A DNA stretch of 64,000 nucleotides, taken from positions 25,310 to 89,309 of the forward strand of contig CAZYDU010000003.1 in NCBI GenBank assembly GCA_964646345.1. Reading direction: 5' to 3'. Every line of letters starts with the position of its first letter. The stretch's first letter is position 1. Below the pieces are notes generated by a model. It ran no database searches, was not told the DNA's origin, and saw only the letters and a program-made list of their open reading frames with translations. Positions 11,312-48,731 of the stretch are shown here, piece after piece. Position numbers and translations under genes: made by a program. The stretch comes from an uncultured Lachnospiraceae bacterium. Lineage in GTDB: Bacteria > Bacillota > Clostridia > Christensenellales > UBA1242.

Positions 11312-12364
11312 ATGGAATATGTTAAATATCACAAGAAATTATGTAAAAATTTAAATGAATTACTTTCGCTAAACTATTTAGTGCTTGACACCTATGCACG
11401 AGCTTTCCCTGGAGATAAAAAATTCCGCACTCGTGAAAATTTACCTATGCCGACATCTAAAAGGCAAGAAGTTGAATTTAGTAGACTTCAGGATTATGCT
11501 GAAGAAAGAGTTAAAAGATTTAATGAGTTTCAAAGTGAACTAAATTCGGAAAACCTTGAAGCTATATTTTTTAATTTAGCTGAAGCCTATCTCGATTTCT
11601 ATAATTCAGAAATGGGCATGAATTATGGCATAAAAGATTTGATTAATTTGGAAAACAAGATTTTCGATTATCCAAAAGCATATAAACTAGGTGTTCTTGC
11701 AAGCAAAAGCACTCTACCTGAAGACACAAAAGACTATTTAATTCGTGGACTCAATGAAGTTATAACTGCTTACACTAAATATGATTATAATAAAGAGTTC
11801 CAATCTTTAACAAATGCCGCCTATAATGATGTTACCGACTACGGCACAAAATCTGAAAACTTTGAAAAAGATTATTTTGATTTAATTAGAATAGACAATA
11901 AAGACCTGATAAAATTTATAGACGAATGCAACAAGGTGTCTAGAAAATATGCATCTAAAAGAAATGAATATGTTTTGAGCTTAAATAAACATTTTAAGAC
12001 AATGAGTCAATTACAAGATAATGATGACATGTTCAATTTCTTTAATTTATCCCAAAATCTTGATAATATGGATATGCATTCGGAATTGTTTAGAGCAAGA
12101 ATGGTTGCAACAAACACACCTGCTAAAGTTCACACAATTCGCAACAAAATCACAGATAAAGTTGTAACACCTGAAAACCCAGAGAAAACTGTTAACATAA
12201 ATAAAACTACAGTTCATTATGAAGAATTTGCTAGATATATATCTTATGCGTTAACATTCCCTGAATTAAAGGAACAAGCAGACGCACTAAGCATAAAGTA
12301 TTTCGGTCAACCACTTGATGAAGAAACCAGCAACCCAATCAAGTATGGGAGAGAAAGCTTATAA
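11312..12364 (+). CDS. Hypothetical protein, paralog A (350 aa, soluble, family not recognised)
   Basis: Long ORF. It shares the N-terminal LN.L.S.NYL.LD and C-terminal FPEL.E.A...SI...G..L blocks, and the exact length, with the next gene. Confidence 0.75.
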   Translation: MEYVKYHKKLCKNLNELLSLNYLVLDTYARAFPGDKKFRTRENLPMPTSKRQEVEFSRLQDYAEERVKRFNEFQSELNSENLEAIFFNLAEAYLDFYNSEMGMNYGIKDLINLENKIFDYPKAYKLGVLASKSTLPEDTKDYLIRGLNEVITAYTKYDYNKEFQSLTNAAYNDVTDYGTKSENFEKDYFDLIRIDNKDLIKFIDECNKVSRKYASKRNEYVLSLNKHFKTMSQLQDNDDMFNFFNLSQNLDNMDMHSELFRARMVATNTPAKVHTIRNKITDKVVTPENPEKTVNINKTTVHYEEFARYISYALTFPELKEQADALSIKYFGQPLDEETSNPIKYGRESL

Positions 12365-12458: not shown

Positions 12459-13511
12459 ATGGAAAAAATAAAAATTAAAGATAAAATGAACAATGATTTA
12501 AACTTTGCATTTTCAATCAACTATTTAATTCTTGATATACTAGATAAAATTACACCTAAGGGCAAAACAAACTTCACAAGAGAAGATATTTTTGCTGAAA
12601 AATCAATGTATGAAAATTACTTGTTTGAATTGCACAAAATTTATGCAGAAGCCCGTGAAGAAACTTTCGATACTATTCAAGAAAATTTCAACTCCATGAA
12701 TTATGCAAAAACATTTAAACAAAACAATGAAATTTTGTTGGATTTATTTAACGAAACAATGGGAACACAAGTTAAATATGACGAAGTGTTTTCTGAAAAA
12801 GACATTGAGAACTGGGACTTTTTCACAGAGTTCGAAGAAAAACTATCAAATTCCAATTTCTCAGATTTAAAAGTCTCAACTCTTGGGATTATGTTATATC
12901 AATACCTTAGTTTTTATAATGACTACAAAAACTGGCGTTCAGTTACTGAGATTTTTGAAGTTTTAAAAAATGATTTCAATAGTTATGGAGCACAATCGTT
13001 TACTTATGGAAAAACACAAAATCAAGAAATCTTGAAAGTTGACTGCGATTTCCTAAAATCAGTTCTTGATAAATGTGATAGTTTCGTTGAAAAGTATTAC
13101 AAGCAATACAATAAACAATTAAAAAAACTTTCAAAGAATGAAGACCCAAATGTTTTGGGTATTCCTGAAAATTTCTCCATACTTGAACAATGCGGTTCAC
13201 TTGATAAACTTGTTGAGTATTGTGATTTATTTGAAAATAGAATACATTCAGCAAACTCGTCACCTAATCTCAAAAAACCACTAAGTGCTAAAATACTCGA
13301 ATTTATAAATAACTTAAAAAATGAGCCAACCGAACCTGTGAAGGTAAAAGACATTTATATCCACAAGATTGAAATGCTAGACTTTTTGTCTATTCTCTCA
13401 ATGTTCCCAGAACTTTCAGAAATAGCAAAGAATGTTTCAATAACATGTTTAGGCGAAGATTTGGTTTCTGACTTAGAAGAAAAAATAAACACACAATCTG
13501 AAAAACAATAA
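12459..13511 (+). CDS. Hypothetical protein, paralog B (350 aa)
   Basis: See paralog A; conserved terminal blocks and identical length. Confidence 0.75.
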   Translation: MEKIKIKDKMNNDLNFAFSINYLILDILDKITPKGKTNFTREDIFAEKSMYENYLFELHKIYAEAREETFDTIQENFNSMNYAKTFKQNNEILLDLFNETMGTQVKYDEVFSEKDIENWDFFTEFEEKLSNSNFSDLKVSTLGIMLYQYLSFYNDYKNWRSVTEIFEVLKNDFNSYGAQSFTYGKTQNQEILKVDCDFLKSVLDKCDSFVEKYYKQYNKQLKKLSKNEDPNVLGIPENFSILEQCGSLDKLVEYCDLFENRIHSANSSPNLKKPLSAKILEFINNLKNEPTEPVKVKDIYIHKIEMLDFLSILSMFPELSEIAKNVSITCLGEDLVSDLEEKINTQSEKQ

Positions 13512-13518
13512 ATAAAAA

Positions 13519-13547
13519 CACTTAACATTTTAGTTAAGCGTTTTTTT
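13519..13547 (+). terminator. Putative intrinsic terminator overlapping the 3' end of the convergent GH13 gene
   Basis: cacttaac / gttaagcg stem (one mismatch) followed by TTTTTTT. Confidence 0.5.
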
Positions 13548-15312
13548 CTATCAAAATTTCAAACTCATTTTCTTTTAAAGTAAAGTTTGATGATTTATTT
13601 TGATTTAAAAATGAAGTATAGTTGCCTTTCAAATCAACAACTAATGGCGTTGAATTTAAATTTACAATCACAATCACACGTTCGTTATTATTAAATCTTT
13701 CAAAAGCAAACTTTCCATGTCTTGCATAAAGAATATTGATTTCGCCATCTTTTAATACTGGTAACTTTCTTATTTTTGTGAGTTTGCAAAACCAATCATA
13801 AATTTCGTTTTTATAGTTTAACCAATCAAAACAACCACGGGAACTGCCATCATTATCAAGCATACCATACTCATCGCCATAAAAAATTGATGGAACACCA
13901 GGGATAGTAAATATTAATGCAGAAGCAATTTTATAAAGTGAAATTGCTTTATTTTTATCATTATCACAAGATTTTAAAATCTCGCTAAAAACTCGCTTCG
14001 TGTCATGAGTTGTTAGAAAGTTCATCAAATTATCACGAACTAGCTTTGGGTAATTGTTTTCAAGCATTCTAATGGTTGATTCCAATGCATTTGGATTTTT
14101 AGTAAAGATATATTCCAGCACGGTTTCTTTTATTGGATAATTCATGACACTATTAAGTTCATTTTTTGAAAAGTATTGTCTGCGTTTTGAATAGCTTGTT
14201 TTTGTTGAAGCATCTTCCCACACTTCCCCCATAACAATATTGTCTTTACCAAATTCATGTACTTTTTTTTCTATTTTTTGAACAAATGAATCTGTTATTT
14301 CATCAACTACATCAAGTCTTACACCGGAAACTCCTAGTTTTAAAAATTTTTCCAAAACCCCGCCGTTTCCTGCTATAAAATTTTGAAAATCTTGGCAATC
14401 ATGATTAATGCTTGGAAGCGTATCAATTCCCCACCAACTGCGATATTTGTTTGGGTATTCATCGAAATCGTACCAATTATAAAATTTTGAATCCTTGCTT
14501 TTAAAAGCACCCAAAGTGTTAAATGTTCCATTTTTATTAAAATAGATTGAGTCACTTCCAGTGTGATTATAAACCCCGTCAAAAACTATCTTCATGCCTT
14601 TTTCTTTCGCCTTGTCAACAAGCTCCTTAAACTCTGTTTCCGTTCCAAACATATCATCAATTTTCATGTAGTCCGATGTATCATATTTATGATTACTATT
14701 TGCAAGCGAAATTGGGTTGAGATATATAGTTGTAACTCCAAGCCCTGCTAAATAATCAAGTTTAGAAATAATACCTTTAATATTTCCACCGAAAACTTCT
14801 TGATTTATTATAATTGGATCGGTGGAGTTTTTTTGAATTTTTCCACCCCAATCTTCACGCATGATTAGTGGTTTTCTTGCCTTAACATCTCCTTGTTTAC
14901 AGAACCTGTCAACATAAATTTGATATATTAACCCGCCTTGCATTGAGTTTTCGCAATCATATTTTTTTTCAGTCACAAGTTGCAAGAAATCTTCTTGTTT
15001 CTCTGGCGATAAAGAAGACCTTGTGTCAAAAGTCTTGTTTAAATAAACGCAAAAATCCTGAAAGACTAACTGAAAATTATACCAAAAATGCCCGAATGTA
15101 TCAAACTCGTACTCAATTTCATAACCATTTTTAACAGCTTTCATTTCTAAATATTTATAGTTTTCATCGGTATCATTTTTTATCATGAAATAAACATTTT
15201 TTAAATTCTCGTCAGTTTCAAGCTCAATGTAAAATTTTACATTTGTTTTTTGTGTAATTACACCCTTTGGAAATTTAAAAAGCAAAGGGTCATACTTTGC
15301 TTTTATGCTCAT
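13534..15312 (-). CDS. GH13 alpha-amylase-family enzyme (neopullulanase/alpha-glucosidase-like, cytoplasmic)
   Basis: GH13 conserved regions VFDGVYNHTG, GVRLDVVDE, GEVWED and FLTTHDT. No signal peptide. Confidence 0.8.
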   Translation of the reverse strand: MSIKAKYDPLLFKFPKGVITQKTNVKFYIELETDENLKNVYFMIKNDTDENYKYLEMKAVKNGYEIEYEFDTFGHFWYNFQLVFQDFCVYLNKTFDTRSSLSPEKQEDFLQLVTEKKYDCENSMQGGLIYQIYVDRFCKQGDVKARKPLIMREDWGGKIQKNSTDPIIINQEVFGGNIKGIISKLDYLAGLGVTTIYLNPISLANSNHKYDTSDYMKIDDMFGTETEFKELVDKAKEKGMKIVFDGVYNHTGSDSIYFNKNGTFNTLGAFKSKDSKFYNWYDFDEYPNKYRSWWGIDTLPSINHDCQDFQNFIAGNGGVLEKFLKLGVSGVRLDVVDEITDSFVQKIEKKVHEFGKDNIVMGEVWEDASTKTSYSKRRQYFSKNELNSVMNYPIKETVLEYIFTKNPNALESTIRMLENNYPKLVRDNLMNFLTTHDTKRVFSEILKSCDNDKNKAISLYKIASALIFTIPGVPSIFYGDEYGMLDNDGSSRGCFDWLNYKNEIYDWFCKLTKIRKLPVLKDGEINILYARHGKFAFERFNNNERVIVIVNLNSTPLVVDLKGNYTSFLNQNKSSNFTLKENEFEILIEKNA

Positions 15313-15342
15313 AAAATAAACCCCCTTGCTTTATTTTATTTA

Positions 15343-17760
15343 TTAATTTGTTAAATGCCAAATTTTGTTAACATAGTCTTGAATTGCTCTATCTGATGAG
15401 AATTGACCCATTGATGAAATACAATGCAAAACTTTTTTATTCCAAAATTCAGGGTCTGTGTAGGCTTTATCCATTCTATCATAAGCATCAAGATATGAAT
15501 CAAAGTCAGCAAGACACATATATAAATCTTTATTGTTTGAATGACCAAGCAAATATGATACAAGGTCAGCAAAAGACTCGCCACCAATGCCAATATTCAT
15601 TTTATCAACAACGCTTCTAACACGTTCTGATGTGATATAGTATTCAGTTGCATTATAGCCACGACTCTTAATTTTATCAACTTCATCAGCTGTCAAACCA
15701 AACTCAAAAGCATTTTCATGACTACATTCATCAGAAATTTCAATGTTTGCACCATCAGATGTACACATCATTAATGCACCATTGATAACAGCTTTCATGT
15801 TACCCGTTCCACTAGCTTCACGACCAGCAAGTGAAATTTGCTCAGTAACTTCAGTTGCAGGCATCAAAATTTCAGAGATTGTTACTGAATAGTTTTCAAT
15901 AAACACAACCTGAAGTTTTTCTCTTAGCACAGGGTCAAGGCTAATTTCATAAGACAAACGATTGATAAGTTGAATTATTCTTTTTGCCATTTCATAACCC
16001 GAAGCGGCTTTGCCTGCAAAGAAAAACACTTGTGGCGTTACTTTATTGTCAGGATTTTCCCTGATTTGATTGCAAAGATAAATAATACGCATTGCATTCA
16101 TAAGTTGACGTTTATACTCATGAATTCGTTTTGCTTGAACATCAAATCTCCAATTTGGATTAACATCAATACCCTGAGTTTCTTTCAAGTATTTTGCTAA
16201 TTTTTTCTTACTTTCAAGCTTGATGTCTTGAAGTTTGTTTAACACTGCCTTATCGTCATAATATTCTTCGAGTTTTCTGAGTGACATTGGGTCTTTGTAA
16301 TACTCTTTGCCAATCAATGAAACTATCAATTCATCTAAATCCGGATTACATTGGCTAAGCCATCTTCTATGGGTTATCCCATTTGTTACATTTGTGAATT
16401 TATTAGGATAAATCTCAGCGTAAGCATTAAACAATCTAGTCTTTAATATGTGAGTATGAATTTTAGACACACCATTAACACTATGAGATGCGTAGATTGA
16501 AAGGTTTGCCATATAAACATTGTTGCCACTAATAATTGACATGGTTTCAAGTTTTCTATAGTCGCCATTACAATACTTTTCAAGTTCTATTCTAAATCTT
16601 CTATCAAGTTCTCTTAAAATCATTGCAATCCTTGGCATTGACTTTTCAATTTCGCTCATTTGTTGAACTTCTAATGCTTCACTTAAAATTGTGTGATTTG
16701 TGTAAGACACAACTTTTGATACGGCATTCCATGATTCTTCCCAACCAAACTCATACTTGTCAAGCAGGAGTCTCATAAGCTCAGGAATTAATAATGCTGG
16801 GTGCGTATCATTGATATGCACTGAAACTAGTTCTGGAAGTTTTGTTAATGTTTTGTGATGTGAAAAATAGTCAGCTAAAATGTTTTGCATTGCTGAAGAA
16901 ACTAAAAAGTATTCTTGATAAAGTCTAAGCCTTCTACCTTTATCCGTTTGGTCAGATGGATACAAAACTTTGTTTATAGCTTCAACTTCGTTTATTACTC
17001 GCATTGAGTCGGAAAAATCTCCGCCTTCAAATTTCTTTATATCAAATTCGTTAACAGCTTTAGCTTCCCATAATCTTAAAGTTACAACTGAGTCTGAATC
17101 ATAACCTGAAATTAACATATCATAAGGCAGAGCTTTTACAATTTCTGCACCTTCGATAGTGTAACTCATTCTATCATTGATATAATCTTGTTTAACAGTT
17201 CCGCCAAACAATACTTCAACTGCTTGGTCTTCTCTTGGGTCAAGCCAAACCCTGCCACTATCTAACCAATCATCAGGTGTTTCAATTTGCTTGCCATCAA
17301 CTATTCTTTGTTTAAATAAACCATATTCATATTTAATGCAGTGTCCAAAGGCACTATAGCCAAGCCTTGCAAGTGAATCTAAATAACATGAAGCAAGTCT
17401 GCCAAGACCACCATTTCCAAGACCTGCGTCTTTTTCAACCAAATAAACTTCTTCAATATTTTTTCCATTCTCTTGTAAGAATGTTTTGTAAGTTTCTTCT
17501 AGCTCCAAATTCCAAAGATTGTTTTTTAAGGTTTTTCCTATTAAAAACTCGATAGACATATAGTGGATTGTTTTTAGCTCATGTTTTTGTGCGTTGAATT
17601 TACCTTTTTTGCCATACAAAAACTCCTTAGAAATATTTGCTAAGGCATAATAGAGCTGTTTGTTTGTTGTGTGTTTAATATCTGTTCCATAATGCTCAAG
17701 CAAATATTCGCTAAGTCTATCCTTTGCATAATTATTTTGTGCTTCAGTCAACATATGCAC
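15343..17760 (-). CDS. glgP: Glycogen/maltodextrin phosphorylase
   Basis: 805 aa with the PLP-lysine motif EASGTGNMK and GLGNGGLGRLA. Confidence 0.93.
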   Translation of the reverse strand: MHMLTEAQNNYAKDRLSEYLLEHYGTDIKHTTNKQLYYALANISKEFLYGKKGKFNAQKHELKTIHYMSIEFLIGKTLKNNLWNLELEETYKTFLQENGKNIEEVYLVEKDAGLGNGGLGRLASCYLDSLARLGYSAFGHCIKYEYGLFKQRIVDGKQIETPDDWLDSGRVWLDPREDQAVEVLFGGTVKQDYINDRMSYTIEGAEIVKALPYDMLISGYDSDSVVTLRLWEAKAVNEFDIKKFEGGDFSDSMRVINEVEAINKVLYPSDQTDKGRRLRLYQEYFLVSSAMQNILADYFSHHKTLTKLPELVSVHINDTHPALLIPELMRLLLDKYEFGWEESWNAVSKVVSYTNHTILSEALEVQQMSEIEKSMPRIAMILRELDRRFRIELEKYCNGDYRKLETMSIISGNNVYMANLSIYASHSVNGVSKIHTHILKTRLFNAYAEIYPNKFTNVTNGITHRRWLSQCNPDLDELIVSLIGKEYYKDPMSLRKLEEYYDDKAVLNKLQDIKLESKKKLAKYLKETQGIDVNPNWRFDVQAKRIHEYKRQLMNAMRIIYLCNQIRENPDNKVTPQVFFFAGKAASGYEMAKRIIQLINRLSYEISLDPVLREKLQVVFIENYSVTISEILMPATEVTEQISLAGREASGTGNMKAVINGALMMCTSDGANIEISDECSHENAFEFGLTADEVDKIKSRGYNATEYYITSERVRSVVDKMNIGIGGESFADLVSYLLGHSNNKDLYMCLADFDSYLDAYDRMDKAYTDPEFWNKKVLHCISSMGQFSSDRAIQDYVNKIWHLTN

Positions 17761-17762
17761 TC

Positions 17763-19217
17763 CTATAATAATTCATTATATGTTTCAATATATTCTTTTG
17801 CGGTTTTATTCCAACTAAAGTCAAGTGACATGACTTTTTTGATTTTCTTTTCCCATTCAGCCTTGTCTTTAAAGTCATTTACTGCACGGCGAATAGAATA
17901 TTCAAGGTCACCAACAACTGCATTTGTGAATGTGTAACCATTACCACCACCAATGCAACCAAAGTCTTTGATAGTATCTTTAAGTCCACCAGTTTCACGA
18001 ACGATTGGAATAGCACCATAACGACTTGCAACAATTTGAGAAAGCCCGCATGGTTCTGTTAATGATGGCATTAAATAAATATCTGCACCAGAATAAATCT
18101 TTTTGCCAAGTTCTAAGCTGAAGCCTAAAGAAACATGCACGTTCTTTGGATATTTATTGTTAAGATAGCTAAAGAAATCGTAAAATTCCTTATCAGCAGC
18201 ACCAACACCAACAAGTTGAATGTCAAGTTCATTGATGAGTCTTTCAATACAACTTTTGATTAAATCAAAACCTTTTAATACATTGATTCTCGAACAAAAT
18301 GCCAAAATTGGTTTGTCAGGATTAACTTCCAAACAAAACTCTTTTTGCAAAAGTTCTTTGTTCTTTTTTCTTACATCGATGCTGTCTTTATCATAGTTTT
18401 GATAAATCACTTTGTCTGTTGCAGGATTGTAGAAATTGTAATCCAAACCATTCAAAATACCACGAAGCTTGTAAGCATTTTGGTTAACAATAGAAGACAA
18501 TCCGTTGCTATGTTCTGGTGTTTTGATTTCTTCAGCATAACTTGGACTAACTGTGATGATTTTGTCAGCAGTTACAATACCACCTTTCAAAATGTTAACA
18601 TCACCGTCTTGGTCAAGAATGTTTCTATATTGTTCATCAATACCCAAAACATCGGTTAAGATTTGTCTCCCGTATCTTCCTTGATATTGAATGTTGTGAA
18701 TATTTAAAATTGTTTTTATATTCTTGTATTTTTCGCCATAGTCTGTGGTCTTTAGATATACAGGGATAAGTGCTGATTGCCAATCATTAACATGAATAAT
18801 ATCTGGATAAAAGTCAATTATTGGCAAAATTTCAATGACACTTTTTGAGAAGAATGCAAATCTTTCTGCATCATCAAAGTAGCCATATTCGCCGTTATCA
18901 CGTTTGAAATATTTTTCATTGTCGATGAAATAATACTTGATGCCTTGATAATCATATTCAAAAACACCACAATATTCTTTTCTCCATGAAAGTGTGATAT
19001 AAATATATCCAATAAATTTAAAATCCTTTCTAAAGCATGATGGAATATTGCTATAAAGCGGAATGATTGTTCTTATGTCAATGTTTGGATTTTCTTGTTT
19101 AATTTCTCTTGGTAGACTTCCACAAACATCAGCTAGTCCACCTGTTGCACAAAAAGGTTGTGCTTCTGATGCTATAAATAACACCTTTTTCTTAGTATTT
19201 TTTTCTTGATTTTCCAT
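17763..19217 (-). CDS. glgA: Glycogen synthase
   Basis: N-terminal ASEAQPFCATGGLADV (KTGGL-type motif), plus C-terminal PSLTEPCGLSQ. Confidence 0.92.
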   Translation of the reverse strand: MENQEKNTKKKVLFIASEAQPFCATGGLADVCGSLPREIKQENPNIDIRTIIPLYSNIPSCFRKDFKFIGYIYITLSWRKEYCGVFEYDYQGIKYYFIDNEKYFKRDNGEYGYFDDAERFAFFSKSVIEILPIIDFYPDIIHVNDWQSALIPVYLKTTDYGEKYKNIKTILNIHNIQYQGRYGRQILTDVLGIDEQYRNILDQDGDVNILKGGIVTADKIITVSPSYAEEIKTPEHSNGLSSIVNQNAYKLRGILNGLDYNFYNPATDKVIYQNYDKDSIDVRKKNKELLQKEFCLEVNPDKPILAFCSRINVLKGFDLIKSCIERLINELDIQLVGVGAADKEFYDFFSYLNNKYPKNVHVSLGFSLELGKKIYSGADIYLMPSLTEPCGLSQIVASRYGAIPIVRETGGLKDTIKDFGCIGGGNGYTFTNAVVGDLEYSIRRAVNDFKDKAEWEKKIKKVMSLDFSWNKTAKEYIETYNELL

Positions 19218-19231
19218 ATTTTTTCTCCATA

Positions 19232-21673
19232 TTAATTATTTCCTGTTTGTTTTCTTGGTCTACCTTTTGGGCGTTTTGGTCTGTTTGCAAGTTCTGGGTC
19301 AATAGGTTTTCTTGGCCTACCCCTTGGGAGCTTTGGTTTGTTTGCCAGCTCCGGGTCAATAGGTTTTCTTGGCCTGCCCCTTGGAAGCTTTGGCTTGTTT
19401 GCCAGCTCCGGGTCAATAGGTTTTCTTGGCCTGCCCCTTGGAAGCTTTGGCTTATTTGCTAGTTCCGGGTCAATAGGTTTTCTTGGTCTGCCACGTTTTG
19501 CCTTTTTTATATTATCTGATTTCTCAGCTAGCTCCAATTCAATATCAGTAACTTCATTTAACACTTCGTTATTTTGAGAAGGTTCATTGTTTAAATTTAC
19601 ATCTTCGTTAATTTCTGTTTTGTTGTCATCTAATTTGATAGAAAATTGTTCTGGCACAAATTTTTTATTCATATCATCTTGTGAAAACAAATCTTTTCCT
19701 TCTGTCTTTGATTCAATAATTTTTGTTACAACATTTTTTGCTTCAATGGCTGAAACATTTCTATGACCTTGTTCTTCTTCTAATGATTCAAATTTAGATG
19801 AAATGGTAAGTGAATAATCTTTCTTTTTGAAGTATACCGCTGAGTTTGGCTCTAATGTTAACTCAATAGAGTTTTCAAAACCATTGATTCGAACAGCATA
19901 ACTTTCGATTGTTCCATAATGTCTGCCATTTCCACCAAATTTTGATGAGTTAGAGCAAAGTATTTCTTCATATCTACCTGCATCAACACCAACACGATAA
20001 TGTTCATGACGAACTGGTGAAAAGTTTGCAATAACAACAATGGACTCACCTTTTTTATTTTTCCTTTCAAAAGCTACAACATTATTCGTGCTATCGTCAG
20101 GTGTAAGCCATCTGAAACCTTCCCATGAGTAATCGATTTCATAAAATTCACTATTATCTTTATATAAATGATTAAGTGCTTTTGTAAAAGCGTACATTTT
20201 GTTGTGTTTTTCGTATTCAAGAAGCATAAAATCAATACCTTTTGAATTATTCCATTCATCAAACTGAGCAAATTCCGTTCCCATGAATGTAAGTTTTTTA
20301 CCTGGGTGGGCATACATATACATTAAAAATGTTCTCATCAAGTCAAATTTTTGATTGTATTCGCCAAACATTTTATTTAATAATGACTTTTTGCCATAAA
20401 CAACTTCGTCATGCGAAATTGGCAAAATAAAGTTTTCCGAAAATGCATAGAACATTGAAAAAGTTAGTTTTGAGTGATTATCTTTTCTAAAGAACGGGTC
20501 TAATTCGACATAAGAAAGTGTATCGTTCATCCAACCCATATTCCATTTATAGTTAAATCCAAGACCACCAATATAGCCTGGTTTTGTAACCATTGGCCAT
20601 GCGGTTGATTCTTCTGCAATCATAAGAGCGGTTGGTGTTTCTGTTAAAACAACCGAATTGAGTTTTCTTAAAAATTCAATAGCTTCAATATTTTTATTGT
20701 CGCCATATTGATTTGCAACCCACTCACCTTCTTTTTTATCATAATCAAGATAAAGCATTGAACTAACAGCGTCTAGTCTAAAACCATCAACGTGGTATTT
20801 ATCAATAAAGAATGTTGCAGAACTAATTAAGAATGATTGAACTTCTGGTTTGCCGTAGTCAAATCTGCGAGTACCCCAGGTTTTGTGTTCCATTCTATCC
20901 CAGCCTTGGTTTTCGTATAAATATCCGCCGTCCCATTCAACAAGACCATGCTCATCTTTTGGGAAATGTGCAGGAACCCAGTCAAGAATAATTGAAATAT
21001 CATTTTCATGACATTTATTAACAAAATATCTAAAATCATCAGGTGTTCCAAATCTGCTTGTCACTGAAAAGTAACCCGTAACCTGATAACCCCAACTTCC
21101 TTCATATGGATACTCAGTAAGTGGCATACACTCAATGTGTGTATAACCCATATCTTTAACATAAGGCACAAGTTCATCGGCAAGCTCTCTGTAAGAATAA
21201 TTTGAACCATCTTCATGCTTTTTCCAAGAGCTGAAATTTACTTCATAAACATTCATTGGTTTTTCAAAGTGGTTTTCTTTTTTCTTTTGCTCAAAGTACT
21301 CTTTATCCGTCCAATCAAAGTCTGAAAACTCGTATACTTTAGATGCGGTTGAACCATTAGTTTCGCTATGTACAGCATAAGGGTCAGCCTTAAAAAGTGT
21401 TCTATCATCTGCTGAAATGATTTGATATTTGTAGTTATCAAATTGTTTAACGCTTGGCACAAATACTTCCCAAATTGAGCTATTTTCTATTTTAGTAAGT
21501 TTATTTGTTTCACTATTCCAACCATTAAAGTCACCAACAACACTGATAGCTTTTGCGTTTGGAGACCAAACTCTAAACCACGCACCACCATTTTCTGGAT
21601 GACAACCCAAAAGATTGTATGCATGATAGTATGTGCCTTGATGAAATAAATAAATTTCCTTCGATTTTTCCAT
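19232..21673 (-). CDS. glgB: 1,4-alpha-glucan branching enzyme with a ~190-aa C-terminal extension carrying five AT-hook-like RGRPRK repeats
   Basis: GH13_9 core (DGFRLDAV, EESTAWP, ISHDEV) ends near aa 625. An acidic linker follows, then KRGRPRKPIDPELANKPKLP RGRPRKPIDPELANKPKLP ... KGRPRKQTGNN. Confidence 0.9.
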   Translation of the reverse strand: MEKSKEIYLFHQGTYYHAYNLLGCHPENGGAWFRVWSPNAKAISVVGDFNGWNSETNKLTKIENSSIWEVFVPSVKQFDNYKYQIISADDRTLFKADPYAVHSETNGSTASKVYEFSDFDWTDKEYFEQKKKENHFEKPMNVYEVNFSSWKKHEDGSNYSYRELADELVPYVKDMGYTHIECMPLTEYPYEGSWGYQVTGYFSVTSRFGTPDDFRYFVNKCHENDISIILDWVPAHFPKDEHGLVEWDGGYLYENQGWDRMEHKTWGTRRFDYGKPEVQSFLISSATFFIDKYHVDGFRLDAVSSMLYLDYDKKEGEWVANQYGDNKNIEAIEFLRKLNSVVLTETPTALMIAEESTAWPMVTKPGYIGGLGFNYKWNMGWMNDTLSYVELDPFFRKDNHSKLTFSMFYAFSENFILPISHDEVVYGKKSLLNKMFGEYNQKFDLMRTFLMYMYAHPGKKLTFMGTEFAQFDEWNNSKGIDFMLLEYEKHNKMYAFTKALNHLYKDNSEFYEIDYSWEGFRWLTPDDSTNNVVAFERKNKKGESIVVIANFSPVRHEHYRVGVDAGRYEEILCSNSSKFGGNGRHYGTIESYAVRINGFENSIELTLEPNSAVYFKKKDYSLTISSKFESLEEEQGHRNVSAIEAKNVVTKIIESKTEGKDLFSQDDMNKKFVPEQFSIKLDDNKTEINEDVNLNNEPSQNNEVLNEVTDIELELAEKSDNIKKAKRGRPRKPIDPELANKPKLPRGRPRKPIDPELANKPKLPRGRPRKPIDPELANKPKLPRGRPRKPIDPELANRPKRPKGRPRKQTGNN
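19237..19505. repeat. 57-bp tandem repeat array (about 4.7 units) encoding the AT-hook repeats
   Basis: Units start at 19294, 19351, 19408 and 19465, differ by only a few bases, and are flanked by degenerate copies. Confidence 0.9.
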
Positions 21674-21684
21674 TATTTTTTCCT

Positions 21685-23127
21685 TTATCTATTTTTTAAT
21701 TTTATTAATTTTTTGAGATACTTATTATATTCAGATTGTCTATAATTTGGGTCTAATTTATAAATCCAATTACCTTTGTTTGTTCCAGGTGTGTTTATTC
21801 TAAATTCGCTACCTTGAAACAATATATCTTGCATTGAAAGAATGCATACGTTTGAATTTGTAGATAATAAATCTTCTATCGCAATTTTTGTTACAATTTC
21901 ACTTGATGAGTTTTTTGATATTCCAAAATACTCACAGAATTTTTCCTTTTGGTCGGCATTATTTAAAAATCCAACAAATGTATCGTTATCATGTGTTCCA
22001 AGATATGCTACACTATTTTTTTCATAATCATGTGGAAGATGTGTGTTTTTTGTATTGCCGTCAAATGCAAATTGCATAACTTTCATACCGGCAAGACCTG
22101 TTCTTCTTCTTAAAGCTCTTGCTGAATACGAAAACTCACCAAGGTCTTCTAGAATTAAATTCTTTATACCATTAGCATAAAACGCTTCAAAAATATCCAT
22201 TCCTGGACCTTTCATCCAAGCACCATTTTTTACAGTCTGTTCTTTGTATGGTATTGCAAAAAATGATTCGAATCCCCTAAAATGGTCAATACGAATAAAA
22301 TCATACCATTTTGAAAGATGTTTAAGCCTTCTTACCCACCAATCATATTTCGTCTTTTTCATATAGTTATAATCGTAAAGCGGATTATTCCAAATTTGAC
22401 CTTCAGGATTGAAATAGTCGCCAGGAACACCAGAAATATAGGTTGGTTCGCTACTTTCATTTAAAAGAAAGTTTTTCTTACTCGAATACATATCAACACT
22501 ATCCATTGAGCAATAGATTGGAACATCTCCAATTATCAAAATTCCTTTTCGATTTGCATAAGATTTTAGTTCTTGCCATTGACTAAAGAAAAGATATTGC
22601 AAAAAAATGTAATACACTATTTCTTCTGAGTGAGATTTGATAAATTCAATGGTTTCTTTTGATTCTGTATCTTTATATTCACTTGGAAATTTTGTAAAAC
22701 CAACACCCAATTCTTCTTTTAAAACCATATAAACAGCATAGTCATATATCCATTTATCATTTTCTTCAATAAATCTGTCTATATCGGTTTTATAATAAAG
22801 TTTTGAAAAAACAAATCTTAAAGCTTTTTGTTTTTTTGTTCTGTATTCTTCAAAAGAAAGGTCATTGGATAATCCAAAAAATTCAATTTCATCTTTTGTT
22901 AAGAATTTTTCAATATCAATATAAAGTGGCTCCCCAGCAAAAGCTGAAACACTACTATAAGGAGAACCTGCACCATCAACAATGCCAAGTGGTAAGATTT
23001 GCCAATATTTCATGCCGAGTTCATGCAAATAATCAACAAATTCAAAAGCTTCGGCAGACAAACACCCAAAACCATATTTGTTTGGAATTGACGAAACTGG
23101 CAATAAAACACCGCAACCTCTTTCCAT
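21685..23127 (-). CDS. malQ: 4-alpha-glucanotransferase (amylomaltase, GH77)
   Basis: 480 aa with GVLLPVSSIP, IIGDVPIY, IRIDHFRGF and YLGTHDNDT motifs. Confidence 0.9.
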   Translation of the reverse strand: MERGCGVLLPVSSIPNKYGFGCLSAEAFEFVDYLHELGMKYWQILPLGIVDGAGSPYSSVSAFAGEPLYIDIEKFLTKDEIEFFGLSNDLSFEEYRTKKQKALRFVFSKLYYKTDIDRFIEENDKWIYDYAVYMVLKEELGVGFTKFPSEYKDTESKETIEFIKSHSEEIVYYIFLQYLFFSQWQELKSYANRKGILIIGDVPIYCSMDSVDMYSSKKNFLLNESSEPTYISGVPGDYFNPEGQIWNNPLYDYNYMKKTKYDWWVRRLKHLSKWYDFIRIDHFRGFESFFAIPYKEQTVKNGAWMKGPGMDIFEAFYANGIKNLILEDLGEFSYSARALRRRTGLAGMKVMQFAFDGNTKNTHLPHDYEKNSVAYLGTHDNDTFVGFLNNADQKEKFCEYFGISKNSSSEIVTKIAIEDLLSTNSNVCILSMQDILFQGSEFRINTPGTNKGNWIYKLDPNYRQSEYNKYLKKLIKLKNR

Positions 23128-44317: not shown

Positions 44318-46024
44318 TTAGTTTCTAATATTATTGTTTGCATTTTTCGACAAAATATTCGCATATTTTCGATTAATTTCTATAAAAAATATTTCGTCAA
44401 AAATATCTTCAAATTGTGAGCTATTGAAATAACAAATAACCGTGCAATGTTTTTTGAGATTTAGAAAAACTTGTTTTATCAAGTCTTTATCTGAACGTGA
44501 TAAGTTTTCAGGCAACTTATAGATATTAATTATTTTCGAGCCGGAAAGATAAGCTCTAATAATTCCTAAAAGAAATCTTTGTTTAGTTGATATATCATTG
44601 TTAGCTAAGGTATTATATTTATCTTCAAAAGAACAGATAAATTCGCTTAGCCCGAGATTTTTTATTTCTTTAAATATCTTATTTCGTGACGGGCAAACCA
44701 AGTATAAATTTTCATAAATTGAGATATTGAAAAACTGTTCATTTGGAGTAACTGAAGAAATATATTTATTAATGTTGGGTTTATCGAGATTAGATATATT
44801 TTTATCTCCCAAAAAAATGCAACCGCCATCGGGTAAGGTTTGTTTAGTTGAAAGATTAAATAGCTCCAAAATTTTATAATCTTCGTCACCAACAAAACAA
44901 ACTAATGATTTGTAAGGAATTTTTAATTGCAAATCCTTTAGTTTTAATTTGGAGTTTGTTGAAACATTGTAGTAATACAAGTTAAACGACTCAAGCTCAA
45001 TGGGCTTTTCTTGTTGTGTGGCCTGAATGTATTTTAATGATTCAAAATGTTTTAGAGTATTATCCATCAGAGCTATTTCAGAGAAAATATCAAAAAATGA
45101 AATCAGGTTTTCAGCAGAACTTGTTAAGTATGGGGTTAATATTAAATAAACCGAAAGAGTGATTTCGGTTGATTTTACTTGACCAATTAAAAATAAAGTT
45201 GAAGCAAATACAGCTGTTTTTAAAATTAAAGATATAAAATTGTTATTGATATTATAAAGCATTGAAATTGAGTTGCTGGTTTTAATGTTTTCTTCAACAT
45301 ATTGAAAATACTTTTCTTTTAATGCATATTCAAGATTATAGTTTTTCTCAGCACTATCTCCACCGCAAATACTGTTAAATAGTCCAATAGAAACATTTTC
45401 ATATTTAGAAAGTTCCTTTGTTTTCGTTTGAATTTTGTTGTCCGTTAACTTTAATAAAAAATAAGAAATAATACTAACAATGATAATGCCGATTGCAAGA
45501 ATATAACTATAAAATAATATGATTCCGAGAATGATTAAAGCTTTTATAAAAAAACAAAATTTATATATTAAGTTTTTGTTAAAATTTACACAGGCTGAAA
45601 CATCTTTTAGAATTGTTACGTCAACATTTTTAACATTTTTATTGTTTTTAACATTATGATAAATATAGTTCTGATAATTAGTTATGATAATGCGGTTCAC
45701 TTTAATGCTGATTTTGTGGTAGCAAAAATATAAAAATGCAGAAACTAGTATCACAAGAAATTCTATAATGGTTTGTTTGATTGCTTTGTTAAAATCATAA
45801 ACTGTGATTGCTGTGATTGCATTAGAAACCAAAATAGGAGTCCATACTGAAAGAATTGCAGGAATTAGCAAGGTTAGAAACATTAAAAATATCAAAATGG
45901 GTTTTATTTTTGATAATTTATAAAATGACTTGATTGTCTTGAAATTTTTGAACAAAGATACTCCTAATTTGCTGTTTTTTATTGTAAAAACGAGCCTAAT
46001 GTTATATAATTTAATTATTAACAA
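44318..46024 (-). CDS. ABC-exporter-like TMD-NBD protein with all ATPase motifs degenerate
   Basis: N-terminal 6-TM ABC_membrane-like region. In the C-terminal NBD-like fold: Walker A is GDEDYKIL, the signature is ISTKQRF, Walker B is IINIYKLPEN, and the H-loop is VICYFN. An alternative TTG start at 45955 has AGGAG 5 nt upstream. Confidence 0.65.
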   Translation of the reverse strand: MLIIKLYNIRLVFTIKNSKLGVSLFKNFKTIKSFYKLSKIKPILIFLMFLTLLIPAILSVWTPILVSNAITAITVYDFNKAIKQTIIEFLVILVSAFLYFCYHKISIKVNRIIITNYQNYIYHNVKNNKNVKNVDVTILKDVSACVNFNKNLIYKFCFFIKALIILGIILFYSYILAIGIIIVSIISYFLLKLTDNKIQTKTKELSKYENVSIGLFNSICGGDSAEKNYNLEYALKEKYFQYVEENIKTSNSISMLYNINNNFISLILKTAVFASTLFLIGQVKSTEITLSVYLILTPYLTSSAENLISFFDIFSEIALMDNTLKHFESLKYIQATQQEKPIELESFNLYYYNVSTNSKLKLKDLQLKIPYKSLVCFVGDEDYKILELFNLSTKQTLPDGGCIFLGDKNISNLDKPNINKYISSVTPNEQFFNISIYENLYLVCPSRNKIFKEIKNLGLSEFICSFEDKYNTLANNDISTKQRFLLGIIRAYLSGSKIINIYKLPENLSRSDKDLIKQVFLNLKKHCTVICYFNSSQFEDIFDEIFFIEINRKYANILSKNANNNIRN

Positions 46025-46051: not shown

Positions 46052-46531
46052 ATGGAAGAAAACAACACTCAAAAACGTGACAAATGGGATAAACGTTTCA
46101 TGGAAATGGCAAAACTTGTTGGAACTTGGTGCACTTGCCATAGACGTCAAGTTGGGGCAATTATTGTTAAGGATAAACGCATTATCGCAACAGGTTACAA
46201 CGGAGCTCCTTCAGGAATTGAAAATTGTTTGGAAAAAGGTTATTGCATAAGAAACAAACTCAATATTCCAAGTGGAACGAAAGCTGAAACTTGTTATTCA
46301 GTTCATGCTGAACAAAATGCTATTATTCAAGCATCAAAACTTGGTATTGCCGTTGATGGAGCAACAATTTATGTTACACATCAACCTTGCACAATCTGCA
46401 CAAGGCTTATTATTAATGCTGGAATTAAAAGAATTGTTTATGGTATTGAATATCCTGATGAATTTTCTTTGCAATTATTAAATGAAGCGGGCATCGAACT
46501 TAAATTTTTACCTTATGGGGACGGTGAATAA
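46052..46531 (+). CDS. comEB: dCMP deaminase (ComEB-type)
   Basis: HAEQNAI and PCTICTR zinc motifs; 159 aa. Confidence 0.9.
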   Translation: MEENNTQKRDKWDKRFMEMAKLVGTWCTCHRRQVGAIIVKDKRIIATGYNGAPSGIENCLEKGYCIRNKLNIPSGTKAETCYSVHAEQNAIIQASKLGIAVDGATIYVTHQPCTICTRLIINAGIKRIVYGIEYPDEFSLQLLNEAGIELKFLPYGDGE

Positions 46532-46532
46532 A

Positions 46533-48731
46533 ATGGATATCATGATAATAATTTCTATTGCTCTTGGATTGCTTTTAATTATTGGTTTTTTGCTGGGATT
46601 TTTGCGAAGCTGGAAAAAATCAACAATAAGATTTGGATTAATCGTTGTTTGTTTTTTTGTTGCTTTGCTGTCATCTTCAAAAATTTCAGAAAGCCTTATG
46701 TCGAAATATGTTAGTGGTTTGGTTATTTCTATTTTTGGTCAAACCATAGATTTTGAGTCATTGGTTGGTGAAGTTGCAGGCGATTTGATTAGCGAAGGTT
46801 CTGCTCTAACAAATTTTGCAACTGCACTATTAAATATTTTTGTAAAATTAATTGCGTTTCTAATAGTATTCATTTCATTAATGGTTGTTACGTTATTGAT
46901 TTATTATATTATCGTTGCGATAATGTCTAGCAAACAAAAGAAAAAATCTGTAGGAAATATTACACCTAAATGGTGGGAAAGACTTATTGGTGGCGGTGTT
47001 GGAATTATAGGTTCACTATTAATTTGCATTGCACTATTTACCCCAGTGTTTGGTGTAATGAATGTTTGTGATAGATTTTTTGAAGAAGAATCTAAAAACG
47101 CAACAGCTTCAGCTTATGCTTATGAAAATAGTTTGATTTGTGGAAAGTTTTACACCGAAGATAAAAATATCGGAAAAGTTGAAACATACCTTGAAAAATA
47201 TGACAAGTTGAGAACAGAATATAAAAAATCTTTTGCGGGTTTTGTGTTCACTTATACTGGTGTTGATGCTATTGGAAAATCAACTTTTAACAAACTTTCA
47301 ACGGTAACTCAAAACGGAATGAATGTTAATTTCACGACAGAGTGTGTTAATATTATTAATGCCTATAATTTATACAAAACCAATTTTGTTGAAAACAAGT
47401 TTGATTTAGCAACCGAACAAAGTGTTGAAGCTGTGCAAAGTATTTATGATATTGCTAAAAATTCAGAAGTAATGCGAGAAGTTGTTTTGGATATTGTTCC
47501 ACGCATGGCTAGCAAATGGACAAATGATGAAACATTCCTTGGAATGGAATTGCCAGTTTCGGGCGATATGAAAGACATTGCAGTTGAACTTTTGGAAGTG
47601 TTTAACTCATCAGAGTTTGACGTTATTGATAGAAATATTAATGTTTTGCTCAATGCTATAAGGGTTGCAAACAAACATGATATTATTGTCGATGTTAATG
47701 CGGGTTCAGAATTAATGGACGTTATTGATAGAGATGATTTTGTTAAAGACGAACTCAATACTTTAGCAACTACTCCAGAAATGAAAAGAGCTTTGCCAAA
47801 CATAATGGTAACTACTGTTAAACTTGCTTACAAGTCGGTTATTGATACAGAACCTAGTGAGCCACTCGAACAAGAATTTACACAAGATGACATTGCAAAA
47901 ATCACTTGGAATAATGAATCAACAAGAATGCAAACTATTGTTACAAAAATGTTTGAGTTTTTTGATACACAAGATGTTATAAACAACTTAACAAATTTTG
48001 GTATTGTTATTGACAATGCAAGAAAGTCGGACGTTATTTCAAAACCTGTTCAAATTTTGATGTATGATTATATCAATTTAAAAGTTCAAGGTGTTGATAG
48101 TGCAAAATCTGTATTGCTAAGTGCGATAAAAAACAACTGGACATCGGAAGATTATAGTTACACAAGTTTGTTTGCAACGGTAGAAACAACCGCGAAAGTT
48201 GCTCAAAGTCTAGAAAATAAAACACTTGAAGACATGACTGGTTCGCTTGAAAATATCAAAAATAATGAAGAATTAAAACAAACTGTTCAAAATGCTGTTA
48301 ATAGTGGAATTATTAATGATTTGATTAGCGATGAAAAGAAAGCAAATATATATAAAGACATGATTAATAGTGTTTTGGATTCAGAAGAAGAATTGAATAT
48401 CGGAAACGAAATGAAGGCTGGACAAGTTGTATCAAACATTGTTAATAAGTCTTCAAACAAAGAAGGCAGTGAATCTTCAATGTTTGCGGGAGAAACGCAA
48501 GAAGAAAAAACACAAGAAGCAAAAGACTCAATCACTACACTCACTCAGTCAAATGCGGTTATGGATTTGCTTGGGATAGAATCAAACAAAAATGACTCTG
48601 CAGTGAAGTCTTATATTAATGGAATGAATAATGAAGACAAGATAGCTTTTGAAAATGCTATTAGAGACATGTCTGTAGGAGAAGACCAAAATACACTTGC
48701 AAAATTGTTTGGTGTAGACTTAAATTCGTAA
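46533..48731 (+). CDS. Large membrane protein: CvpA-like N-terminal 4-5 TM module plus a ~550-aa helical domain of unknown function
   Basis: I prefer the start at MDIMIIISIALGLLLIIGFLLGFLRSWKK (ATG 46533, 2 nt after the comEB stop). The ORF-track start at 46482 overlaps comEB. Confidence 0.7.
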   Translation: MDIMIIISIALGLLLIIGFLLGFLRSWKKSTIRFGLIVVCFFVALLSSSKISESLMSKYVSGLVISIFGQTIDFESLVGEVAGDLISEGSALTNFATALLNIFVKLIAFLIVFISLMVVTLLIYYIIVAIMSSKQKKKSVGNITPKWWERLIGGGVGIIGSLLICIALFTPVFGVMNVCDRFFEEESKNATASAYAYENSLICGKFYTEDKNIGKVETYLEKYDKLRTEYKKSFAGFVFTYTGVDAIGKSTFNKLSTVTQNGMNVNFTTECVNIINAYNLYKTNFVENKFDLATEQSVEAVQSIYDIAKNSEVMREVVLDIVPRMASKWTNDETFLGMELPVSGDMKDIAVELLEVFNSSEFDVIDRNINVLLNAIRVANKHDIIVDVNAGSELMDVIDRDDFVKDELNTLATTPEMKRALPNIMVTTVKLAYKSVIDTEPSEPLEQEFTQDDIAKITWNNESTRMQTIVTKMFEFFDTQDVINNLTNFGIVIDNARKSDVISKPVQILMYDYINLKVQGVDSAKSVLLSAIKNNWTSEDYSYTSLFATVETTAKVAQSLENKTLEDMTGSLENIKNNEELKQTVQNAVNSGIINDLISDEKKANIYKDMINSVLDSEEELNIGNEMKAGQVVSNIVNKSSNKEGSESSMFAGETQEEKTQEAKDSITTLTQSNAVMDLLGIESNKNDSAVKSYINGMNNEDKIAFENAIRDMSVGEDQNTLAKLFGVDLNS

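Follow-up and report, generated by a model that had tools for sequence, protein, structure and literature searches.

Glycogen in bacteria is usually regarded as a cytoplasmic polymer that diffuses freely or is excluded from the poles, and we know of no dedicated mechanism for its positioning or inheritance comparable to PhaM and PhaF, which act on polyhydroxyalkanoate (PHA) granules. PhaM of Cupriavidus necator and PhaF of Pseudomonas putida attach these granules to the nucleoid through basic, unfolded, histone-like tails, which contact DNA without sequence specificity, and ensure their segregation to daughter cells (PMC9049629). The RNA-polymerase-binding transcription factor CarD of Myxococcus xanthus carries a C-terminal, intrinsically unfolded domain of ~140 residues, in which an acidic segment is followed by RGRP-type AT-hooks, and which binds DNA experimentally (PMC4374960). 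This HMGA-like domain and histone-H1-like domains are functionally interchangeable, the H1-like domain of the Anaeromyxobacter analogue being swapped in without loss, and a 2010 account recognised no prokaryotic HMGA-like cases besides CarD and one ortholog (PMC2919716). Here, we describe a glycogen branching enzyme, GlgB, with five AT-hooks in a C-terminal extension, encoded on a 64-kb stretch of DNA (hereafter the window; 64,000 nucleotides (nt), positions 25,310 to 89,309 of contig CAZYDU010000003.1, assembly GCA_964646345.1) from an uncultured Lachnospiraceae bacterium. An initial annotation, made from the sequence alone, had proposed that the enzyme is fused to five AT-hooks; this is borne out, as the hooks lie in frame within one gene, on the open reading frame (ORF) 19232..21673 of the minus strand, with the C-terminal sequence as described.

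The glgB coding sequence (19232..21673, minus strand; ORF list and NCBIfam) encodes 813 amino acids (aa) plus a stop, of which aa 1-625 form the catalytic core (19799..21673, minus strand), as delimited by Pfam and by mapping of the core end over 120 homologues, the untailed ones terminating at about aa 626 of the window protein. NCBIfam GlgB equivalogs cover the core almost completely, from aa 2 to 619, and all score above their cut-offs (NF008967, 839 bits against 577; NF003811, 833 against 741; TIGR01515, 768 against 464), which places the protein within the GlgB family. The Pfam domains follow in the order that characterises GlgB, namely CBM_48 (GlgB_N/CBM48), Alpha-amylase (the GH13 catalytic domain) and Alpha-amylase_C. 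Residues D301, E354 and D422, which would, as in GH13 enzymes generally, be the nucleophile, the acid/base and the transition-state stabiliser, are unchanged in all homologues aligned (n=61); because they are invariant, the window GlgB is presumably a normal, catalytically competent branching enzyme, as far as sequence can tell. AlphaFold2, run on a 61-sequence alignment, predicts a folded core. The protein thus resembles canonical GlgB (the GH13_9 enzymes of ~626 aa found in Firmicutes) in its end-to-end core, its CBM48, GH13 and C-terminal beta domains, its catalytic Asp/Glu/Asp and its glg operon, and differs from it in a C-terminal extension of 188 aa, which the nearest untailed relatives do not have. 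An exact look-up found no protein on record that is identical to the window GlgB.

The basic part of the extension is an AT-hook array at aa 726-813 (19235..19498, minus strand), composed of four 19-aa units and a terminal hook, with a net charge of +22 and a guanine-plus-cytosine (GC) content of 0.48. A motif scan places the five GRPRK hooks, all on the minus strand, at aa 728-732 (19478..19492), aa 747-751 (19421..19435), aa 766-770 (19364..19378), aa 785-789 (19307..19321) and aa 804-808 (19250..19264), the last being followed by QTGNN and the stop codon. The C-terminus reads ...KRGRPRKPIDPELANKPKLP RGRPRKPIDPELANKPKLP RGRPRKPIDPELANKPKLP RGRPRKPIDPELANRPKRP KGRPRKQTGNN, and its 88 basic-part residues comprise KRGRPRKPIDPELANKPKL, PRGRPRKPIDPELANKPKL (twice), PRGRPRKPIDPELANRPKR and PKGRPRKQTGNN. 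By the published definition, an AT-hook has basic residues within 1-5 aa of a G-R-P core (PMC4615771). Each of the five hooks has the sequence [KR]-G-R-P-R-K and conforms to this definition, as the initial annotation had anticipated in calling them AT-hook cores with basic flanks. The hooks are spaced exactly 19 aa apart and are encoded by a 57-bp tandem repeat, for which Tandem Repeats Finder reports a period of 57 bp, 4.3 copies, 91% matches and a score of 355 at 19249-19492. In all six frames of the window, the only GRP[RK] motifs are the five of glgB, a confinement that argues against chance. The hook of the last unit, RGRPRKQ, is presumably the same as hook 1 of HMGA1a.

The core and the array are separated by a linker at aa 626-725 (19499..19798, minus strand), which has a net charge of -11 and a GC content of 0.27. 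Within it lies a short segment, aa 641-656 (19706..19753, minus strand), recognised by column conservation and carrying the motif EAKxxVxKIIExK, with columns that are at least 70-90% conserved in 47 tailed sequences just past the GlgB core. AlphaFold2 predicts low-confidence helices at aa 627-637 and 641-656, and the predicted local distance difference test (pLDDT) value is below 50 over most of aa 655-813, so that the tail is predicted to be intrinsically disordered. Candidate roles for the conserved helix are dimerisation, partner binding and an amphipathic anchor. With several AT-hooks beside an acidic region (linker -11, array +22) and a low pLDDT, the extension has the make-up of an HMGA-like domain.

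A homologue search of 5.8 billion proteins identified ~90 GlgB clusters, at 59-83% identity, with extensions and 2-6 hooks, coming from ENA, NCBI, JGI and Logan assemblies, so that the extension is conserved among relatives and not absent from them; the few named ones are metagenome-assembled genomes labelled ‘Clostridia bacterium’. The next relatives (at most 66% identity, 625-630 aa) end at the core and have no hooks, and the listed matches in species-representative genomes are all at most 57% identical to the window GlgB, none with hooks. Every extended GlgB with a complete C-terminus has the same layout, in which the core is followed by the conserved helix, a variable linker and 2-6 hooks. 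The linker varies among these relatives in sequence, in length (40-191 aa) and in net charge (-17 to +6), and is not acidic in all of them, whereas the array is far more uniform: 47 of the 90 full-length proteins have five hooks, and 264 of the 282 hook-to-hook intervals measure exactly 19 aa. The consensus unit is G-R-P-R-K-P-[VI]-D-P-[EN]-x-x-x-K-P-K-R-P-[RK], in which positions P6, D8 and P9, beyond the hook itself, are 96-98% conserved across sequences that are phylogenetically non-independent, and in which G, R, P and K are invariant, partly by construction because GRP[RK] was the pattern used to find the hooks. Hook number varies even inside 90%-identity clusters, with two hooks in P0079 and four in P0137, whose tails are otherwise identical, and five in P0076 compared with three in P0134, although the copy numbers come mainly from short-read assemblies and some low counts may be collapsed repeats. 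The repeat therefore behaves as a coding variable-number tandem repeat (VNTR), its copy number changing from one close relative to another, in keeping with the copy-number variability suggested initially; as the unit length is a multiple of three, copy variation alters the number of hooks and never the frame.

The initial annotation had also held that the units differ by only a few bases and had taken this for recent expansion. The first statement applies to the two inner 57-bp units, which differ at 2 of 57 nt, and fails for the remaining pairs of the four full units, which differ at 7-14 of 57 nt, mostly synonymously. Recent expansion is contradicted by the sharing of the array across a clade whose cores have diverged to ~60% identity and by its divergence between orthologues: in comparisons of the window with two orthologues, both at 83% core identity, the array has a ratio of nonsynonymous to synonymous substitution rates (dN/dS) of 0.061 and 0.071 at a dS of 0.86-0.94, resting on ~50-60 synonymous sites, and the catalytic core has a dN/dS of 0.072 and 0.080. 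By these sequence comparisons, purifying selection on the array matches that on the core in strength. It is also the most GC-rich part of glgB, at 0.48 compared with 0.34 in the core and 0.27 in the linker, which in an AT-biased genome indicates maintenance against mutational bias. Units within one protein are 93% identical, whereas they are 73% identical to units of other proteins irrespective of whether the array position is the same or different, a signature of concerted evolution. Unit similarity is thus explained by concerted evolution together with purifying selection, and the array is, on this sequence evidence, an old, selected and homogenised repeat with some play in copy number. A function of the 57-bp repeat at the DNA or RNA level was considered and rejected, because the peptide is conserved while synonymous sites are near saturation between orthologues.

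The closest bacterial precedent for this tail is the C-terminal domain of CarD. In both cases an acidic segment is followed by RGRP hooks in a disordered region placed C-terminal to a folded bacterial domain, and in both cases homologous proteins elsewhere bear a Lys-rich, H1-like domain instead. In contrast to CarD, the carrier is a metabolic enzyme and not a transcription factor, the lineage is clostridial and not myxobacterial, and the GlgB tail has five hooks with a strict 19-aa tandem period, a P-[VI]-D-P extension and concerted evolution. The resemblance to CarD and HMGA, which involves short motifs of low complexity, likely reflects convergence. PhaM and PhaF provide the closest functional analogy, since GlgB is, by implication, also a storage-polymer-binding protein with a basic, predicted disordered tail; here, however, the polymer is glycogen and not PHA, AT-hooks replace the PAKKA/AAKP repeats, to which they bear no sequence relationship, and the putative tether is fused to the biosynthetic enzyme and is not a separate phasin or activator. 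The bacterial xenogeneic silencers H-NS and Lsr2 have AT-hook-like motifs of the Arg-Gly-Arg type that recognise the narrow minor groove of AT-rich DNA (PMC4466236, PMC8476142); in these proteins a single motif is part of a folded DNA-binding domain of an oligomerising silencer, whereas GlgB has five free-standing hooks on the disordered tail of an enzyme. AT-hooks, a bacterial HMGA-like domain and tethers between storage granules and the nucleoid are therefore known components; what appears to be undescribed is their combination on a glycogen enzyme, together with the strict repetition every 19 residues and the occurrence in parallel of H1-like tails on GlgB. The initial annotation knew of no described example, and literature searches on GlgB or branching enzyme together with AT-hook likewise found nothing relevant, nor did full-text searches return anything on an AT-hook tail, Lys-rich tail or C-terminal extension of GlgB, or on AT-hooks and glycogen in Clostridia. 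In the available part of a 2024 review of prokaryotic alpha-glucan enzymes, the terms ‘AT-hook’, ‘nucleoid’, ‘DNA-binding’ and ‘disordered’ do not occur (PMC11046441). The GlgB hooks add to the very few HMGA-like domains recognised in bacteria and bring two features that are new to AT-hook biophysics, namely a strict 19-residue period and a conserved P-V-D-P extension.

More distant GlgB proteins carry basic tails of another kind. Among the matches listed for species-representative genomes of Clostridia, Negativicutes and Bacilli (80 loci, 48-57% identity), 30 loci encode a C-terminal tail that is also basic, is at least 15 residues long and differs from the hook array; most of these tails, 15-197 aa in length, are Lys-rich with Ala, Pro or Thr, of low complexity and histone-H1-like, and none of the 30 contains a GRP hook. 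The carriers include Ruminococcus, Oscillospiraceae and Selenomonadales (among others, loci L005-L007, L011, L014, L015, L017, L018, L020, L023, L026, L028, L030, L038, L042, L055, L058, L061 and L070); one Ruminococcus tail consists of a repeated ‘KKAPAKKAPAKKAAEKPAEE’ over 124 aa, and that of Ruminococcus sp. JE7B6, from a complete genome, reads ‘AAKKPAAKKPAKKAPVKK...’. A basic tail on GlgB thus looks like a widespread and probably convergent theme in the Firmicutes.

Conversely, periodic hook units are found on proteins other than GlgB. A search for the array in 1.84 billion representative proteins recovered similar periodic units on short-chain dehydrogenase/reductase (SDR) enzymes, on NifU_N proteins, a Ppx/GppA phosphatase, a DDE transposase and a protein with a helicase-associated (HA) domain (these non-SDR cases being P0140, P0141, P0143, P0145, P0150, P0153, P0154, P0187, P0202, P0207, P0215/P0144 and P0166), and on several large proteins without known domains. 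The SDR (adh_short) enzymes are 459-629 aa long, compared with ~290-360 aa for their untailed relatives, and bear, at the N-terminus, 3-6 AT-hooks that recur every 17-19 aa; this fusion is clade-wide, with ~35 full-length clusters (P0165, P0175, P0205 and P0217-P0251), and the two loci examined, L087 (8001-9476) and L088 (8001-9440), have a GC content of 0.30 and 0.36, respectively. The NifU_N (IscU-like) proteins have 7-16 hooks at a spacing of 21-25 aa, and the DDE_Tnp_1 transposase has a C-terminal array of the same 19-aa unit as GlgB. Periodic AT-hook arrays thus seem to form a portable module shared by several enzyme families (SDR, NifU-like, Ppx/GppA and transposase), and the genomes are low in GC where this was checked, at least for the SDR examples. 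A separate observation concerns P0142, a protein of 189 aa with a lipoprotein-like signal peptide (…ISGC…), which ends in GlgB-type 19-aa units and whose terminal …GRPKKHTENN is that of the GlgB proteins P0002 and P0012; either the module has moved to another gene, or the assembly is chimeric at the repeat.

How might the array act? We consider it probable that the GlgB tail binds nucleic acid, with DNA as the most likely partner, and we infer DNA binding by the hooks; tethering and partitioning are more speculative. In the proposed model, one lineage of low-GC gut Clostridia has gained on GlgB a predicted disordered, HMGA-like C-terminal domain made up of a short conserved helix, a variable acidic spacer and typically five canonical AT-hooks at a fixed 19-aa spacing. 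Each RGRPRK core would slot into the minor groove of an AT-rich DNA duplex and, given the 19 residues that separate successive cores, adjacent hooks could span as much as ~18 bp, or about two helical turns, between their sites, so that five hooks together might provide high-avidity and largely sequence-non-specific binding to a chromosome of ~30% GC. As the CBM48 and GH13 domains imply that the core holds alpha-glucan, an enzyme whose tail holds DNA could bridge the growing glycogen particle to the nucleoid. Such a bridge would place glycogen synthesis on the nucleoid and could allow both daughter cells to receive particles, in the way that PHA granules are distributed by PhaM and PhaF. The view that the tail tethers GlgB and glycogen to the nucleoid in a multivalent manner draws on motif identity, the CarD precedent and the analogy with PhaM and PhaF, and we regard it as finely balanced, while a role in positioning or partitioning is put forward only tentatively. 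More doubtful is a broader proposal in which many gut Firmicutes would anchor glycogen particles to the chromosome through DNA-binding tails of GlgB itself, with AT-hooks in the lowest-GC Clostridia and H1-like, Lys-rich tails in Ruminococcus and relatives as two convergent solutions tuned to base composition. If glycogen were indeed anchored to the chromosome through GlgB tails, this would constitute a previously unrecognised positioning or partitioning system for a storage polysaccharide, and the tail offers a directly testable handle on the spatial organisation of glycogen in abundant uncultured gut anaerobes.

The occurrence of the same 19-aa unit on a DDE transposase, an enzyme that acts on DNA, supports the proposed tether, and several other observations weigh against it. 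The Pfam AT_hook model (PF02178), which covers 13 residues and has a gathering threshold of 17.4 bits, is the top match of the window array when this is searched alone and matches it in four stretches, yet at 14.2 bits (E 0.04) the score remains below threshold, and AT_hook is not listed when the whole window GlgB is searched; the arrays of relatives fare better, with 6 of 10 passing at 20.1-48.2 bits, and one GlgB relative already has a precomputed AT_hook domain. None of the solved structures in the PDB was matched in a sequence search with the array. The P-[VI]-D-P stretch at unit positions 6-9 lies outside the canonical AT-hook, so the ligand or the geometry may differ, and neither its conservation nor that of the helix at aa 641-656 is explained by a tether. 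The placement of the array on GlgB instead of GlgA or GlgP is likewise unaccounted for. As similar arrays are found on SDR, NifU_N and Ppx/GppA enzymes, which are unrelated to granules, the array may be a general localisation or solubility tag that is not specific to glycogen. The hook-tailed loci have a GC content of 0.28-0.34, lower than the 0.38-0.64 of the loci with Lys-rich tails, but as the hook-tailed GlgB proteins form one clade the comparison is phylogenetically non-independent and purely descriptive. Finally, AT-hooks can bind RNA as well as DNA (PMC4615771).

The last point leads to a rather unlikely alternative, in which the tail would bind RNA, or nucleic acid generally, and recruit GlgB to RNA-rich regions or promote co-condensation of glycogen with RNA. 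Canonical and extended AT-hooks bind RNA, some of them about ten-fold more tightly than DNA (PMC4615771), and each GRP core of the predicted disordered, multivalent tail has basic patches 12-19 residues away, contributed by neighbouring hooks, in an arrangement that resembles the extended-hook pattern. The basic residues that directly flank GRP (R-GRP-RK) are, however, those of a canonical DNA-type hook, the closest bacterial precedent, CarD, binds DNA, and the same 19-aa unit is present on a transposase. We also think it unlikely that the tail is a generic disordered polycation with no specific ligand, acting as a charged brush, binding other polyanions such as polyphosphate or anionic lipids, or folding back onto the acidic linker for autoregulation. 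The juxtaposition of a linker of -11 with an array of +22, the presence of arrays on unrelated enzymes and the compositionally different Lys-rich tails at 30 of the 80 distant loci (among the matches listed), which suggest that charge matters, are all compatible with such a polycation, but charge alone leaves the uniform R-K-P-[VI]-D-P, the 19-aa period (264/282 intervals) and the core-level dN/dS unexplained, and a required intramolecular clamp between acidic and basic parts is at odds with a linker charge that is not conserved (-17 to +6).

A further and quite improbable possibility is that GlgB has a moonlighting role, either regulatory or nucleoid-associated, in which the DNA-bound enzyme would shape chromosome structure or gene expression, its link to glycogen being incidental. 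Precedents can be found in the HMGA-like CarD, a global transcription factor, and in PhaF, which also affects transcription of the pha genes (PMC9049629), and five hooks could bend or bridge DNA; against this stand the strong purifying selection on the catalytic residues and the whole core, the position of glgB inside the glycogen operon in every relative examined, and the fact that this analysis provided no pointer to a specific DNA target. It seems hardly credible that the repeat lacks a function, whether as a neutral VNTR of recent expansion or as an artefact of assembly or reading frame. It is a 57-bp tandem repeat whose hook number ranges from two to six and varies inside 90%-identity clusters, and short-read assemblers can collapse repeats; yet the in-frame architecture recurs in ~90 clusters from four independent data sources, dN/dS is 0.06-0.07 at a dS of ~0.9 with mostly synonymous unit differences, the array spans only 244 bp with distinguishable outer units, and the start of glgA 14 nt past the glgB stop shows that the operon structure is intact. 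An assembly or gene-fusion error was rejected on the same ground, namely that ~90 independent clusters carry the array.

The genomic surroundings are those expected of a glycogen gene. On the minus strand, glgB is preceded in the operon by malQ, encoding a GH77 4-alpha-glucanotransferase (21685..23127; Pfam PF02446, E 1e-143), and followed by glgA (glycogen synthase, 17763..19217; Pfam Glyco_transf_5/Glycos_transf_1), glgP (glycogen phosphorylase, 15343..17760; PF00343, E 5e-278) and, as the last gene of the conserved cluster, a GH13 alpha-amylase-family gene (13534..15312; PF00128). Upstream of malQ and glgB lie leuS, a VanW-domain gene and a CCA-adding-type gene, and five further genomes (loci L081-L086) preserve the gene order cca-vanW-leuS-malQ-glgB-glgA-glgP-GH13, so that other glycogen genes stand beside glgB both in the window and at these loci. 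The GC content of these five genomes, as represented by their loci, is 0.27-0.34. Inspection of the GlgA C-terminus revealed no basic tail, and in ~115 kb of related loci hooks occur in real ORFs only in glgB, with none on GlgA, GlgP or other ORFs. At L084, the most AT-rich relative (GC 0.28), GlgP (14961-18134) has 1057 aa, with an Asn/Asp/Lys-rich low-complexity insertion of ~200 aa near the N-terminus, and GlgA (13294-14952) has 552 aa; hooks and basic tails are absent from both extensions.

The window as a whole has a GC content of ~30% and holds ordinary chromosomal genes, including tex, ftsH, gpmI, gltX and glycosyltransferases; tRNA and Rfam scans of it gave no match. Between ~28000 and 34000 the GC skew changes sign, with a cumulative minimum at ~32 kb, and gene orientation turns from mostly minus to mostly plus, as it would at an origin; a replication origin at this skew change (32-34 kb) was nevertheless rejected, since DnaA boxes are not enriched (24 observed compared with 21.5 expected) and no dnaA gene was seen. 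Two ORFs further along, at 44318-46024 (minus strand, 568 aa) and 46482-48731 (plus strand, 749 aa), have no Pfam match at E ≤1e-5. Beside the glg cluster, at 11312-12364 and 12459-13511 on the plus strand, lie two adjacent 350-aa ORFs without a Pfam match that are distant paralogues of each other (25% identity, E 8e-21), and the loci L081 and L082 have a single ORF of ~350 aa at the position of this pair.

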